Positions 7,003 through 23,106 of a stretch of DNA of 39,418 bases are shown piece by piece; position 1 is the first letter of the stretch; every line of letters begins with the position of its first letter. The translations under genes and the position numbers were made by a program. A model generated the notes under the pieces. It searched no databases and was not told the origin of the DNA. It was given only the letters and a program-made list of their open reading frames with translations. The DNA comes from an uncultured virus (IMG/VR IMGVR_UViG_3300012954_000006) (lineage: Duplodnaviria; Heunggongvirae; Uroviricota; Caudoviricetes), in the IMG/VR virus record IMGVR_UViG_3300012954_000006. One strand, given 5' to 3'.

Positions 7003-7821
7003 ATGACTAACAAAAATCTACCCTTAATAGAATTTTGCAATATTGTAATGCCTGACTATCAGGCTACATGGTTTCATAAACTGATTGCTTCCAAACTAGA
7101 AACCTTTTTAAAAGATGATATTAAACACCTTATTATTAATCTACCTCCTCGTCATGGCACTACGGAGTTGTGTGTGCGAAAATTTATTCCCTACGCCATT
7201 GATACACAATCGCCTATTCGCATCAATTTTCGCTCCTACAACCGATGTCTTACAGATTCAATAATGCGTGACTTGTTTCGGCATTATGTTAGTCGTTATA
7301 AATATACATTTGGCTTACCTAACTGTGTAATAACTGAAGGTGTAGGAAGTCCAACAAATATTCTTTTTAGAAATGGCTCTAATATTAGTGATGATATATC
7401 CATTGAGACAGATGCTGATATTTATATTTATGATAGCATCGAAAGCAGAAAAGTGTCATTAGACTATATTTATGAGCCTGTGAAATGCAATACGATTTTA
7501 GAATCAGCAAAGTAAGGGAAAGTCTTATTTCTTAGCCATAGGTATGCATACAATGATTACACTAATAGACTATTGAAATCTAATATAGGAAGTTTGTTTG
7601 AAGTGGTTAGTATTCCTGCTATTAAGACAGCAAATAGCGACTGTAAAGAAGATAATAGAAGTGTGGGTAAGGCATTATGGCATAACAGAGATAGCCTTTC
7701 ATATTTGTTGCAATTAAAAAACGAGGACTTGGCACTATTTGAAACCTTTTATCAACAGCAGCCAATGAGCCAAATTGATTTGGAGCGATTGGATGAGTTG
7801 AAACAGAAAATGAAACTGTAA
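7003..7821 (+). pseudogene. Degenerate terminase large subunit ATPase domain only, split by in-frame TAA at 7513-7515
   Basis: YQATWFHKLIASKLE...LIINLPPRHGTTE (canonical PPRHGKS/T); frame continues *GKVLFLSHRYAYNDYTNRLL...FEVVSIPAI...GKALWHNRDSL...FETFYQQQP; stops before any nuclease domain. Confidence 0.75.
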
Positions 7822-7827
7822 AAAAAT

Positions 7828-7860
7828 AAGGAGTAGTAATCAATTTGAATACTACTCCTT
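7828..7860. terminator. Bidirectional terminator between convergent genes
   Basis: AAGGAGTAGTA...TACTACTCCTT. Confidence 0.7.
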
Positions 7861-7892
7861 TCACTATTTTTCAACAACCAAAATGCTTTATT

Positions 7893-19492: not shown

Positions 19493-20058
19493 TTAAATGT
19501 TTTTATTTAATAATTTTGATTTAATCGCAATAAAAGAATCTACCTCGTAGATGTTGCCAAAATCATAAGGCGTGTCTTTAAACTCTTTCGCATCTACTCT
19601 CCATCTAAAATTAGGATGTTGGTGATTCTGCGCTTCTAACTTTCTATTATAGCAATGCCAAACTCCGAAAAAGGGGTCATGTATTCGTGTTAAACTATTA
19701 TCAATATTATCTACCACAACATAATGAGGCACATCAACAGACACTAGCAATATGATAATATATCCCTGCGATATTAACGTTCTCAATATTTTTGTGTTGC
19801 CATAACTTTGGGTAAAAACATCCGAAGAGAAGAAAAGCCTTTTAAATACTTAACAATTTGCTATTTAGTCGTGCCTGATTTGCTATTCGTTCTTAGCGAT
19901 TCCTCTAAAACAATCTCTGTTGGTAAATTTACTTGTAAGCGAGACAAACACATTCTAACACAGGCACATCCACAAGTATATGCTTTTTCTTGCTTATAAT
20001 AATGAATATAGTTATGTTTCTTTCGCTTTGCGTTTTGCGTTTTTGTTGCTTTTTTCAT
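19493..20058 (-). pseudogene. C39-like cysteine peptidase, interrupted by TAG (19861-19863) and a frameshift near 19841
   Basis: KQEKAYTCGCAC (Cys) in ORF 19861..20082; PHYVVV (His) and IHDPF (Asp) in ORF 19493..19786. Confidence 0.7.
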
Positions 20059-21118
20059 TCTTGTAAATAAGTTTGCCATCAAAATCGTACTCCTTGTAAT
20101 TGTTACAGCCTACACTATTACTTAGTGATGCTCTTATCGTCTTACCTTTGTAAGACAACGAGATACAATTTATATGATATAAAAAAGGTACAATAACCTT
20201 ATTAGACCGTATATCCACTACTCCGCACCTACCTGTTGAAATATCGCAAGCTTTCATGTAATGTCCTGTAAAAATACTCACACTTGCATACCTTATATGT
20301 TCAGATACCAAATGTCCTTTGGTGTTAATTATATTAAAAGTGTCTTTCTTTACTTTGACAACACCATATTCGCCTACAAAACGTTGCGGTACGCTATTCT
20401 TTTCGCAATGATATATAACTTGGTTTTTGCTATTCAGATAATTAAAATTACCGCCGTGTTTTTTGGCTAAAAAATAATTTTCATTACCTATGCGAGTGTT
20501 ATACAACACTTCATACTCAAATGGCATCACGGTTTTTCCATAAACATTAACACCTCCCAAAAGACCATTTTCCTTTACAACTGCAACATCTAGTTTGTCG
20601 TACTTATCCTTGTGCGTAAAATGAGGAGCTACTCGTGTACTACTATTAAATTGCCTTATAACCTGTACGCTGCTATCTGTGTGACCAAACAACAAAGTGT
20701 CATATTCATTGTTACTACTGCTAAAACAACAATGAAACATAGCACCTGCACACCTATAAACATCTTCATAGTCATCTGATATTTGTGTACCTTGCTCATT
20801 CAAGAAACAATAATAACTTCCCTCTTTGTAAGTTTTTCTAGCATAGAAAAATACAACATCTCCTTTGGTAGTGGCGACTATCTGCCTTCTAATGTAGCGA
20901 TACAAAGAACTAATTATTGTTCCATCGAGACACAATGCCATACACTTATCTGTACCATCTAACAGGTCTTGTTGAATATGCACCATGCTATTTTTTTGTT
21001 TTAGCAGCAGTAACTTTCCCCGCTTTTGCAATAGCCTTGCCTCTAAGTCTTTTATCTCACGTTTAAGGCATTTTATTTCATTACTTAACATACTCAAAAG
21101 TCGCTTTAGTGCCATCAA
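20012..21118 (-). CDS. WG-repeat-like protein with N-terminal coiled coil
   Basis: KENGLLGGVNVYGKTVMPFEYE, GRCGVVDIRSNKVIVPFLY, FNIINTKGHLV repeats. Confidence 0.75.
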   Translation of the reverse strand: MMALKRLLSMLSNEIKCLKREIKDLEARLLQKRGKLLLLKQKNSMVHIQQDLLDGTDKCMALCLDGTIISSLYRYIRRQIVATTKGDVVFFYARKTYKEGSYYCFLNEQGTQISDDYEDVYRCAGAMFHCCFSSSNNEYDTLLFGHTDSSVQVIRQFNSSTRVAPHFTHKDKYDKLDVAVVKENGLLGGVNVYGKTVMPFEYEVLYNTRIGNENYFLAKKHGGNFNYLNSKNQVIYHCEKNSVPQRFVGEYGVVKVKKDTFNIINTKGHLVSEHIRYASVSIFTGHYMKACDISTGRCGVVDIRSNKVIVPFLYHINCISLSYKGKTIRASLSNSVGCNNYKEYDFDGKLIYKNEKSNKNAKRKAKET

Positions 21119-22439
21119 AGATTTTAAGACGAGGTAAGTGGGTATAAAGGAAGTCCTTTTCTTCTGTACTAATACTACTATTTTTCACATACAATGCATC
21201 TAAGTTTTTTGCCGAAGCCAAGCAAAGAATATTAATAATATTACTATTGTTGTTTAGGTACAGCTTTTTTAAGGCGATAGCTTGTGATAACGGCCGTGTG
21301 TCAATGGTATTTATTTTTAGGCTATTCAAATCCAATGTCATCAAAAATGGCAGCGACTTAATTGGTGTTAAATCTGCTACTTTGGTACGGTCTAGCTCTA
21401 GTTGTCGCAACTTTCCAAGTTCACTCAACACTTCAATATCCGATAATGGACACATAGATATATTTAAATATTCTAGCATCAGGCAATTCTGAATAGCAGT
21501 AATGTTTGTGATGTCGCTATCACATATCAACAACCTTTTCAATGATGTTAGATTTGCCAAAAAGCTTACATCTGTACATTGGGCATATTCATCAATATGG
21601 GTAATACTTAAACTTTGCAATTGCGTGAGTTTTCCAATGACAGACAATTGGTTAGCGGTACATTGACTAACTACCAAATTTTTCAACTTAGGTAGCGTTG
21701 TTAGAAAACTGTAATCAACGATAAATGTACCGAAAATATCCAATGTAACCAAGTTTTTCAAGTGGGCAAGAAAGCTAGTATCTGCTATGTCAAAATCGCT
21801 AATTGTCAAATTTTTAAGCTGTTTCATTACTGGTAATAGCTCATAGAGCTTATCTAGTGACATATCACAACCGCTAAAGTTAGCTGCTCGCACATTAGAC
21901 AAATATGACTTTAAGTCCGAGGCATCAACTGTGTCAGCATTAGGTAAATCTGCATAATAAAAAACGCCATCAGACAATGCCTGTTCAAAATACTTACTAG
22001 AATATGTCGGTGTATTCATGTTTCTTTGAATTTTTATTTTTTGATTTTCTACTGCTTTTTCTACCCAAGTAGGGTACTGTAAGTCTTGTAACATTCTTTT
22101 AAACTCAATGCTACCTAATTCGCCAGAGGCACGGTCACCCGCCCATGTCTTGATGTTTAAGTCTAAGGTGGCTTTTGCTTGCAAGTATTTTTCTAACAAT
22201 GCGATTTCACTACAAGCCTTTTTAATACCGAAGCTTTCATAATGATATAATGCTTCTATGGCTGTTACGCCATCTGGAGTAGTTTTCCAGTTGTCTGTAA
22301 ATGACATTCTGCCAGAGCAGCTATTTCCTTTTTTGTAATGCAATAACCAAACGTCCAATTTTTGATATAGGCGTTGGATTGTTTTTCTTTTTTTTCTATT
22401 TGCCATGCTATTGTTTGTATGTTTCAAACTGCTTATCAC
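21081..22439 (-). CDS. Internalin-type leucine-rich repeat protein
   Basis: ~22 aa repeats such as LANLTSLKRLLICDSDITNITAI and LSELGKLRQLELDRTKVADLTPI; start possibly 22406. Confidence 0.85.
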   Translation of the reverse strand: MISSLKHTNNSMANRKKRKTIQRLYQKLDVWLLHYKKGNSCSGRMSFTDNWKTTPDGVTAIEALYHYESFGIKKACSEIALLEKYLQAKATLDLNIKTWAGDRASGELGSIEFKRMLQDLQYPTWVEKAVENQKIKIQRNMNTPTYSSKYFEQALSDGVFYYADLPNADTVDASDLKSYLSNVRAANFSGCDMSLDKLYELLPVMKQLKNLTISDFDIADTSFLAHLKNLVTLDIFGTFIVDYSFLTTLPKLKNLVVSQCTANQLSVIGKLTQLQSLSITHIDEYAQCTDVSFLANLTSLKRLLICDSDITNITAIQNCLMLEYLNISMCPLSDIEVLSELGKLRQLELDRTKVADLTPIKSLPFLMTLDLNSLKINTIDTRPLSQAIALKKLYLNNNSNIINILCLASAKNLDALYVKNSSISTEEKDFLYTHLPRLKIFDGTKATFEYVK

Positions 22440-23106
22440 TTTGAAAACAGTCTTTATTTTGGGTTAAATAATATTTGTTATTATTAGCTAACTCTCCAGT
22501 AGTAGTAATAACCTGTACATTGGTGTTAAGTTTCTTGACAGCAATAAGAAGCTTACTTCGTACAGTTATATCTCCAATAACATCAATATTATCAAGCAAT
22601 AGTAAAGTGTTCTGGTGTTGTTGTAAATATACTGTCAAAAGCACTATCAAAACCTGTTTCAACAATGTTGGCAATTGATAAGCATTTTGAATTTTGTGAT
22701 TGATTAGTCCTCGAAAAACAAGCCTATTAAAATGAATGACTGCTATTACGTTAGAGGCATCAAAAATGTCATTTATCTGTTCTATCAAAATAGACCTATT
22801 GACTGTCGATACTGCTCTACCAAAAGCATGAAGTAATTTTCTTAATGAATTATTTGGCTCTATCAGTCCAAGTGTCAAGCGGTGCATGTTAAATGCACCA
22901 GTAGTCTTGATTTTGATGTTTGCAATAGCATTTAGGTAGGCTCTCTGTTGAGCAATTGGCTCAAAATAGTTTTCTATCAAATCTAACAATAACGAGTTTT
23001 CAACATTACTATTGCCTACATATACTTTTATACGACTAATTTGCGTATTGTTAAACAGATAGTTTGATTGAGGAAAACCATCAATTTGTATCTCTTTTAT
23101 ATGCAC
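22408..23106 (-). CDS. Degenerate AAA_15/AAA_21-type ABC ATPase
   Basis: MHIKEIQIDGF start; VYVGNSNVENSLLLDLI (Walker A lacking GK); LLLLDNID (Walker B E to N); QVITTTGE (H-loop His lost). Confidence 0.75.
   Translation of the reverse strand: MHIKEIQIDGFPQSNYLFNNTQISRIKVYVGNSNVENSLLLDLIENYFEPIAQQRAYLNAIANIKIKTTGAFNMHRLTLGLIEPNNSLRKLLHAFGRAVSTVNRSILIEQINDIFDASNVIAVIHFNRLVFRGLINHKIQNAYQLPTLLKQVLIVLLTVYLQQHQNTLLLLDNIDVIGDITVRSKLLIAVKKLNTNVQVITTTGELANNNKYYLTQNKDCFQSDKQFETYKQ

Follow-up and report, generated by a model that had tools for sequence, protein, structure and literature searches.

A putative pseudo-ATPase related to AriA among open and broken conflict-domain genes in an uncultured marine virus record

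We analysed a stretch of 39,418 nt deposited as IMG/VR record IMGVR_UViG_3300012954_000006 (the whole stretch is hereafter called the window), for which an original prediction had proposed that a phage keeps an arsenal of host immune and signalling proteins as decoys. Six candidates had been named: an ABC ATPase, a TIR domain protein, a histidine-kinase-like protein, a leucine-rich repeat (LRR) protein with a Roc-like part, a stand-alone EAD11-like adaptor and a nuclease-less terminase ATPase. Judged by its alignments to cellular relatives, the ABC protein at 22408-23106, which is related to AriA, is the only one of the six in which the scaffold is kept, the catalytic residues are gone and the frame is open. 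Three of the six were named correctly as domains (ABC, TIR and EAD11); a fourth does contain LRRs, without Roc; the histidine kinase is unsupported; and the terminase is a pseudogene. The decoy interpretation fits one member, the dead AriA homologue, and is unsupported for the arsenal as a whole.

The reading that we prefer, and to which we give about an even chance of being right, is that the window represents a fast-evolving accessory part of a large AT-rich marine mobile element, carrying a mixture of maintained conflict-domain proteins and wrecks and not a set of uniform decoys, with the ABC pseudo-enzyme acting as a non-catalytic binder. We infer that a big phage is the most likely identity of this element. 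Under this reading, domains of bacterial conflict systems would have been taken up long ago and would then have evolved in place. The set that is maintained would comprise an AriA-type ABC protein no longer able to bind or hydrolyse ATP, a TIR protein probably still in possession of its glutamate, the EAD11 adaptor, the LRR proteins and several orphans.

An AriA-like ABC protein with replaced ATP-site residues

The protein that carries this finding is encoded as follows:

22408..23106, minus strand: AriA-like ABC protein of 232 aa with its ATP-site residues replaced (a putative pseudo-ATPase), in an open frame; recognised by the PADLOC AriA model and by alignments to the Bacteroidota loci L100 and L102.

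The PADLOC AriA model PDLC04164 matches residues 107-203 of this open reading frame (ORF) with E 2.1e-10. The same model finds matches in 14/14 control genomes, which marks it as a general detector of ABC ATPases, and the assignment to AriA therefore comes from the DUF4435 neighbours of the protein's relatives. Pfam returns SMC_N only, at E 0.036-0.09. Searched against 401 Bacteroidota genomes, the ORF gives 7 matches at E <=0.01; chance alone would account for about 4. The best cellular relative, at L100, aligns at 35% identity over residues 109-204 (E 2.7e-7 per genome), and a protein at L102 matches the same region (E 0.0016). Both relatives belong to Pfam AAA_15/AAA_21 (E 4e-24 and 2e-22), and in both loci a DUF4435 gene follows directly after the AAA_15/21 gene (E 2e-20 and 7e-9). 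At L100 (1-3288), the pair formed by the AriA-like gene (288 aa) and the DUF4435 gene is flanked by a Mur-ligase gene and an mraY-like gene, inside a cell-wall gene cluster.

Set against L100 and L102, the window ORF retains the order of the motif positions and has lost the residues that would make an enzyme of it. The signature motif LSSGEKQ has become LPTLLKQ; the Walker B sequence LLMDEPD has become LLLLDNID, with the glutamate replaced; the D-loop SLH reads IGD; and the H-loop STHSP reads TTGEL, with the histidine replaced. These alignments confirm, at the level of homology, an AriA/AAA_15-21-type ABC protein whose enzyme residues are clearly lost, and the claim of an ABC ATPase at this locus with its catalytic motifs erased was correct. 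For Walker A, no GK[ST] occurs in the first 60 residues, and a local alignment that sets VGINGSGKS against VGNSNVENS is not significant, its score being reached by 162/2000 shuffles; loss of the Walker A glycine and lysine is likely.

The gene that follows the ABC ORF is an LRR gene, not a DUF4435 gene. A PDB sequence search with the ORF returned nothing. AlphaFold2 run without alignments reached a predicted local distance difference test score (pLDDT) of 33.7, too low for the fold to be read, and a predicted complex of two copies of the ORF with the DUF4435 protein of L100 scored 0.00 against a mark of 0.32, a result that counts neither way on binding.

AriA serves PARIS as ABC ATPase sensor and scaffold, and ATP-dependent recognition of a trigger by AriA is reported to lead to release of AriB, with the ATPase of AriA required for defence (PMC11464382). 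In the same report, the AriA mutant K39A is still loaded with AriB, but it does not bind the trigger, AriB is not set free and defence fails (PMC11464382). By comparison with K39A, the window protein would still hold its partner and would be incapable of ATP-dependent release. It may serve as a sink that takes up a nuclease of the DUF4435/AriB type, or may enter a host AriA assembly as a poison subunit; it would not act as a sensor. Literature searches on anti-PARIS and on pseudoenzymes in phage anti-defense found no natural ATP-site-dead form of AriA, and the sole PARIS counter listed in a 2026 review is a T5 tRNA variant (PMC13728456).

Open frames and broken genes

Two genes in or near the same region have plainly been destroyed:

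7003..7821, plus strand: remnant of a terminase large subunit, ATPase domain only (PHROG 4758, E 2.3e-14; PHROG 38 matches both pieces).

19493..20082, minus strand: broken C39-like peptidase, with the cysteine part at 19861-20082 and the histidine/aspartate part at 19493-19786, in different frames.

The two terminase pieces lie in one frame and are split by a single TAA at 7513-7515, the first running from 7003 to 7515 and the second, a small ORF whose match falls further along the same PHROG family, continuing to 7821. BLASTP places them opposite residues 29-109 (38% identity) and 205-284 (39%) of the 484-aa terminase of MT835630.1. The Walker A motif, PPQHGKSE in the MT835630.1 ORF, reads PPRHGTTE in the window (K to T), and residues 285-484, the nuclease half, have no counterpart in the remnant, which is encoded on the other strand from its neighbours. 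The gene is, on this sequence, a pseudogene remnant and not a domesticated nuclease-less ATPase: the original prediction was right that a real terminase ATPase piece without its nuclease is present, and missed that it is broken. A C39 gene had likewise been noted in the block. C39-like matches are indeed found and in the right order, as two fragments in different frames that stay under the Pfam cut-offs (Peptidase_C39_2 E 6.9e-4; DUF3335 E 6.7e-4 and 6.9e-3); the lesion consists of one in-frame stop and a frame change.

Both lesions are present in Logan contigs from a marine metagenome run, which match the window over 7000-14955, 14929-17992 and 18043-23106 with 0 other letters and 0 gaps at about 55-60x; this run, the only public one found to contain the stretch, may be the window's own source, and no RNA run is listed as containing it. 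The Logan contigs break at 17993-18042, a T/C-rich tract (CTTCTT, runs of T) between the methyltransferase gene and the 301-aa ORF described below, and the tract was skipped as a repeat in the comparison. Joints between distant positions in the Logan data (11240 to 19030 and similar) had only 21-33 letters on the short side and were rejected, being read as noise from other organisms.

The candidate ORFs look different. At a stop rate of 0.081 per codon, frames of 155-452 codons would stay open by chance with a probability of 2e-6 to 3e-17, and the 232-codon frame of the AriA-like protein with one of 3e-9. GC content is higher at the first codon position than at the second and third (GC1 > GC2 and GC3) and the overall composition equals the window mean, which argues for long residence and real coding. 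Since these long frames remain open despite divergence so deep that Pfam misses the ABC and TIR proteins, and despite fully ameliorated composition, the comparison argues that the open ORFs encode maintained proteins and that C39 and the terminase are wrecks.

This contrast bears directly on the alternative that fares best after the preferred reading, namely that the block holds the leftovers of a defence operon captured earlier, whose genes are functionless and heading towards loss; the operon may have been a PARIS-like system borne by a phage and including TIR and peptidase genes. The two demonstrable pseudogenes show that plain decay does occur in the region; the AriA-like protein has lost its ATP-site residues and the window lacks an AriB partner; and PARIS is reported to be encoded often in viral genomes (PMC11464382). 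We nevertheless regard neutral decay as unlikely, since it leaves five long frames (232, 452, 368, 155 and 301 codons) open in DNA of 33% GC, and frames that had gone unselected for long enough to diverge beyond Pfam recognition and to ameliorate fully in composition would be expected to have acquired stops like those of C39 and the terminase.

The TIR protein probably retains its catalytic glutamate

19024..19491, minus strand: stand-alone TIR domain protein of 155 aa, recognised by its ESM Atlas model, by a PADLOC ThsB match (E 0.0023) and by TIR_2 relatives.

For this ORF the original prediction was right about the domain and probably wrong about the loss of the catalytic residue. The TIR fold is recovered: the ESM Atlas model has a pLDDT of 0.89, the ten best family-bearing Atlas feature matches are all TIR clusters (score 0.95), and the Atlas structure matches are TIR/ThsB clusters with template modelling (TM) scores of 0.79-0.83 (by query) over 139-149 residues, one of them an EAD11-TIR cluster. 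Pfam TIR_2 gives no match even at E up to 10, and a PDB sequence search gave nothing. An exhaustive search of 1.84 billion representatives returned 3 non-self relatives (P0003, P0004 and P0005; E 9.4e-7 to 5.3e-4), which are giants of 1564-1928 aa, each carrying between three and five TIR_2 domains in tandem.

We aligned the window ORF with the 14 repeats of these relatives and one TIR from a Bacteroidota protein that bears EAD11, under six MAFFT settings. In 6/6 settings E75 falls in the [E/D]-L-x-x-A-[IL] column, and a phmmer comparison of P0004 with the Cat1 structure sets that column opposite the glutamate of 'WCWDEL', which we take to be the catalytic residue of this type of motif. Ungapped spacing would put F77, not E75, in the catalytic column, and the earlier call that the motif is erased corresponds to this spacing. 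On the alignments, the TIR protein probably retains its catalytic glutamate.

Two observations on the relatives stand apart from this result. Their TIR_2 domains are joined to NB-ARC/TPR, to a poly-gamma-glutamate hydrolase domain or to EAD2, and many repeats of P0003 and P0005 have no glutamate, the column reading I, I, L, Q, V, A, A, V.

Viral TIR genes are described as infrequent and 'enigmatic', and a role in limiting superinfection has been suggested for them (PMC9503650).

A stand-alone EAD11 adaptor

10853..11218, minus strand: stand-alone EAD11 adaptor domain (Pfam PF19964) in a protein of 121 aa with an acidic tail.

9732..10856, minus strand: orphan of 374 aa; its start and the stop of EAD11 share 4 nt; no family in Pfam, PHROGs, PADLOC or NCBIfam.

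A stand-alone EAD11-like adaptor had been predicted here, and the assignment held up, the Pfam match being full-length (positions 2-80 of 80; E 2.6e-11; 43.7 bits against a cut-off of 26). The domain occurs in 8/401 Bacteroidota genomes at E <=0.001 and in 5/401 above the cut-off. The EAD11-bearing ORFs at the 8 of 18 match places that were scanned with Pfam comprise one TIR_2-EAD11, two EAD11-CHAT and two SIR2_2-EAD11 proteins, a single stand-alone EAD11, and two proteins with no domain besides EAD11. The ORF from these loci that lies closest to the window protein is itself a bacterial stand-alone EAD11 (L084, 126 aa). EADs have been proposed as homotypic coupling adaptors, and stand-alone EAD genes are reported to belong to the described systems (PMC7159879, PMC8195603). 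Because bacteria too have stand-alone EAD11 genes, the stand-alone state is no sign of a decoy by itself: the structural half of the claim is right and the half that would make it a decoy does not follow.

LRR proteins and orphans of the block

The remaining candidates lie in a block described as co-oriented and about 7 kb long, which is correct: all genes of 16210-23106 (6.9 kb) are on the minus strand.

21081..22439, minus strand: LRR protein of 452 aa (Pfam LRR_4, E 1.2e-11; LRR_14, E 1.7e-10); the N-terminal 180 aa are of no known family.

20012..21118, minus strand: orphan of 368 aa; no Pfam, PADLOC or NCBIfam match.

18122..19027, minus strand: orphan of 301 aa; its start and the stop of the TIR gene share 4 nt; no family found.

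16210..17187, minus strand: protein of 325 aa; its LRRs, about three in number, span residues 25-98, and the C-terminal 226 aa are an orphan part.

An LRR gene had been expected in the block, and 21081-22439 is one; the NCBIfam internalin-type LRR model also matches, far under its own cut-off, with E 2.6e-18. The LRR-Roc-like protein at 16210 divides, the LRRs (residues ~25-98) being present and no search lending support to a Roc/COR or Ras-like GTPase part. Its C-terminal 226 aa match nothing in Pfam, PADLOC or a word-index protein search, and hits in 4/391 genomes are at chance level; AlphaFold2 without alignments gave a pLDDT of 34.8, unusable even for the LRRs. A third LRR protein, of 377 aa, lies at 37085-38218 on the minus strand (weak Pfam LRR_4), and the three LRR ORFs are not detectable paralogues.

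The proposed histidine kinase at 18122 shows no HATPase_c or HisKA homology: neither Pfam (E up to 10) nor PADLOC, NCBIfam, PDB or the Atlas gives any match, and the Atlas model is poor (pLDDT 0.47). Matches in 6/391 Bacteroidota genomes (E 0.001-0.007), several with internal stops, are at about the level of chance, and no membrane segment was found in the ORF. The WG repeats suggested for 20012-21118 fare no better, PF14903 giving no match at E up to 10 with the whole ORF or with its halves; three G-x-x-G-[GV]-[VN] units are seen there by an ad hoc pattern only.

Gene organisation and the neighbours of the candidates

15071..15103, unstranded: the strongest terminator-like hairpin, of 14 pairs; likely the end of the minus-strand run that begins at about 23.4 kb.

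17197..17892, minus strand: type II DNA methyltransferase of 231 aa, apparently intact (PADLOC MTase_II, E 7.5e-36; PHROG 56).

Minus-strand genes from about 23.4 to 15.1 kb abut or overlap, and no comparable hairpin was found on that strand between 15.6 and 23.4 kb; from these features, the run is plausible as one transcription unit. The final gene before the hairpin, at 15107-15535 on the minus strand, is a cysteine-rich ORF of 142 aa with a hydrophobic N-terminus (possibly a signal peptide). The best phage match of the methyltransferase, at 39% identity, is in a 735-kb uncultured phage. The gene is a compositional outlier in the block (GC 0.405 against a window mean of 0.337) and looks like a later arrival than its neighbours. 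Further away, 29740-30516 (minus strand) encodes a regulator of antitoxin type in which HTH_3 is combined with a SocA/Panacea domain; an orphan of 193 aa lies immediately downstream (29145-29726), and the two may form a toxin-antitoxin pair.

This arrangement raises the alternative of a working conflict cassette that the element would use in superinfection exclusion or competition between phages, with an active TIR protein as effector or signal maker, the LRR proteins as binders and the AriA-like protein as a non-catalytic scaffold. We consider it rather unlikely. The probable position of E75 in the catalytic column, the tight run of genes with overlapping stops and starts and no strong internal terminator, the suggestion that phage TIR genes limit superinfection (PMC9503650), and the nearby HTH-Panacea and methyltransferase genes are all in its favour; yet the gene set matches no known system, PADLOC returning single weak matches only, a broken peptidase lies midway along the run, and the TIR has no W/Y-C residues before its glutamate.

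The nature of the element

The window is AT-rich (GC about 33%), and almost every long frame is on the minus strand, where frames of at least 100 codons cover 34,236 nt (87% of the window). It holds 58 ORFs, 57 of them whole, with a median length of 176 aa for the whole ORFs, and coding sequence on one strand takes up 88% of the window. Nearly all are orphans, with few PHROG matches, and no paralogues were found among them at E 1e-3. Their ends use TAA 36 times, TAG 11 times and TGA 11 times. The standard genetic code fits the window; recoded stops (TGA as W, TAG or TAA as Q) brought little gain on the coding strand and were rejected. No tRNA or Rfam RNA genes were found across the window, and promoter-like sites occur at chance level (90 against 84.8 +/- 10.1). 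The protein clusters of three ORFs share a single contig of 192,865 nt.

The thymidylate synthase gene thyA is intact (Pfam E 5e-115; PCH motif present), as had been pointed out from its retained motifs. It is 57-63% identical to homologues from many phyla at once and gives no signal of a host lineage. At the left end of the window, a minus-strand frame of at least 964 aa (1-2892) runs off the edge and matches nothing in Pfam, PHROGs, NCBIfam, the phage records or IMG/VR. Two small minus-strand ORFs at 34691-35119 and 36188-36499 show a weak QSregVF_b match (E 1.3e-6) and a DXP_synthase_N fragment exactly at the cut-off (21.2 bits).

If the element were not a phage, the window could be a bacterial or plasmid island with its own fast-diversifying conflict genes and a piece of a dead prophage. 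The sole phage hallmark is indeed a broken terminase of small-phage type, 39 kb contain no virion genes, and EAD11, TIR and AriA are typical of bacterial islands. Against this stand the median ORF length of 176 aa, the one-strand coding of 88% over 39 kb without tRNA or RNA genes, the near-complete dominance of orphans, and a thyA equally far (57-63% identity) from several phyla, in contrast to a chromosomal gene, which ought to lie near one lineage. An island is, on balance, distinctly unlikely.

Weighing the preferred reading

Several results weigh against the reading of the window as a phage accessory region with a maintained, non-catalytic AriA-like binder. As regards the element, no intact virion gene is present in the window and the only hallmark is the broken terminase. 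As regards the ABC protein, no family model matches its first 100 residues, the Walker A alignment does not exceed what shuffled sequences achieve, and its 232 aa are short beside the 288 and 430 aa of its nearest relatives, so that the partner-binding part may be missing; a family scan of 61 window ORFs found no DUF4435. For the TIR, E75 reaches its column only with a gap of 3 residues, at the cost of the W/Y-C that precedes the glutamate, and the profile alignment ends at residue 75. Relatives are scarce throughout. For the ABC-like ORF, for EAD11 and for the C-terminal part of 16210-17187, the word-index search of proteins returned no entry but the query itself, and the relatives of the TIR are three distant proteins only. 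A tblastn search of 50,697 phage records found no relative of the window EAD11, nor did tblastn against phage records find any for the ABC-like, TIR and 964-aa ORFs; an IMG/VR protein-pattern search with four ORFs found none either, and megablast of the window against phage records gave no match. The original prediction had itself named a lack of homologues in related phages as counting against it, and none appear in the phage records or in IMG/VR.

In a stronger version of the preferred reading, a large marine phage would keep an AriA homologue, dead at its ATP site, that either soaks up AriB or poisons an assembly as one of its subunits. Such a protein would be K39A in natural form and the first found to inhibit a PARIS-type system, and the phage would also keep an EAD11-only adaptor that blocks the EAD11-mediated recruitment of TIR, CHAT or SIR2 effectors. 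We regard this combination as speculative, with only a slim chance of proving correct. The full original claim, that most of the ORFs (ABC, TIR, histidine-kinase-like, LRR-Roc-like, EAD11 and terminase) are dead copies of host immune proteins kept as dominant-negatives or sinks, is very improbable: the ABC-like ORF fits it, EAD11 is stand-alone and EADs have been proposed as homotypic adaptors (PMC7159879), and the frames are open, but the histidine kinase and Roc are without support, the TIR probably has a glutamate in its catalytic column, the terminase has an in-frame stop, bacteria also carry stand-alone EAD11 genes, and the searches found no related phage.

If the AriA-like protein does act as a sink or poison subunit, phages could overcome a defence built on an ATPase and a nuclease by means of a dead version of that defence's own sensor, and a phage-borne EAD11-only protein would, if it acted in the way proposed, carry the adaptor-decoy logic of animal viruses over to bacteria. 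The present value of the analysis is mainly corrective, since the greater part of the proposed arsenal lacks support, is broken or probably remains catalytic; calls of erased motifs made by eye need alignments to real relatives.

Comparison with known systems

The terminase remnant aligns with the terminase of a small tailed phage (MT835630.1) in two blocks of the ATPase domain only, and differs from it in its in-frame stop, its change from GKS to GTT and its missing nuclease domain. The TIR protein shares with the TIR_2/ThsB-type TIRs of Thoeris and other systems the fold, the sequence block from betaB to betaC and, probably, a glutamate in the catalytic column; it departs from them in a 3-residue deletion that takes away the W/Y-C, and its relatives are only individual repeats within giant multi-TIR proteins. 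None of its neighbours is ThsA-like, SLATT or Macro. The TIRs of Firmicute phages are reported to pair with SLATT (PMC9503650), whereas the ORF next to the window TIR has no membrane segment.

Like adaptors of the EAD systems (Kaur, Burroughs, Iyer, Aravind 2020, 2021), the window EAD11 is full-length and stand-alone. Its setting differs, being that of phage-like orphans without a STAND, VMAP or ternary core, and no EAD11-bearing effector is present in the window. Decoys built from death folds, from CARD-only or DED-only proteins and from TIR domains exist in animal and other eukaryotic viruses. The logic shared with the death-fold, CARD-only and TIR decoys of eukaryotic viruses, namely that a non-catalytic copy of an oligomerising host domain poisons the assembly, is drawn on here as an analogy only.

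The closest comparison is with AriA of PARIS. The C-terminal half of the window protein is homologous to it, and the layout of the relatives, AAA_15/21 followed by DUF4435, is the AriA-AriB layout. In the window ORF the serine and glycine of the signature, the glutamate of Walker B and the histidine of the H-loop are replaced, as probably are the glycine and lysine of Walker A. PARIS consists of AriA and the DUF4435/Toprim nuclease AriB, whereas the window ORF has no AriB neighbour, and AriA of E. coli is reported at about 55 kDa (PMC11464382), against 232 aa here. On paper, the counterpart of the window protein is the laboratory mutant AriA K39A, which loads AriB and does not release it (PMC11464382).

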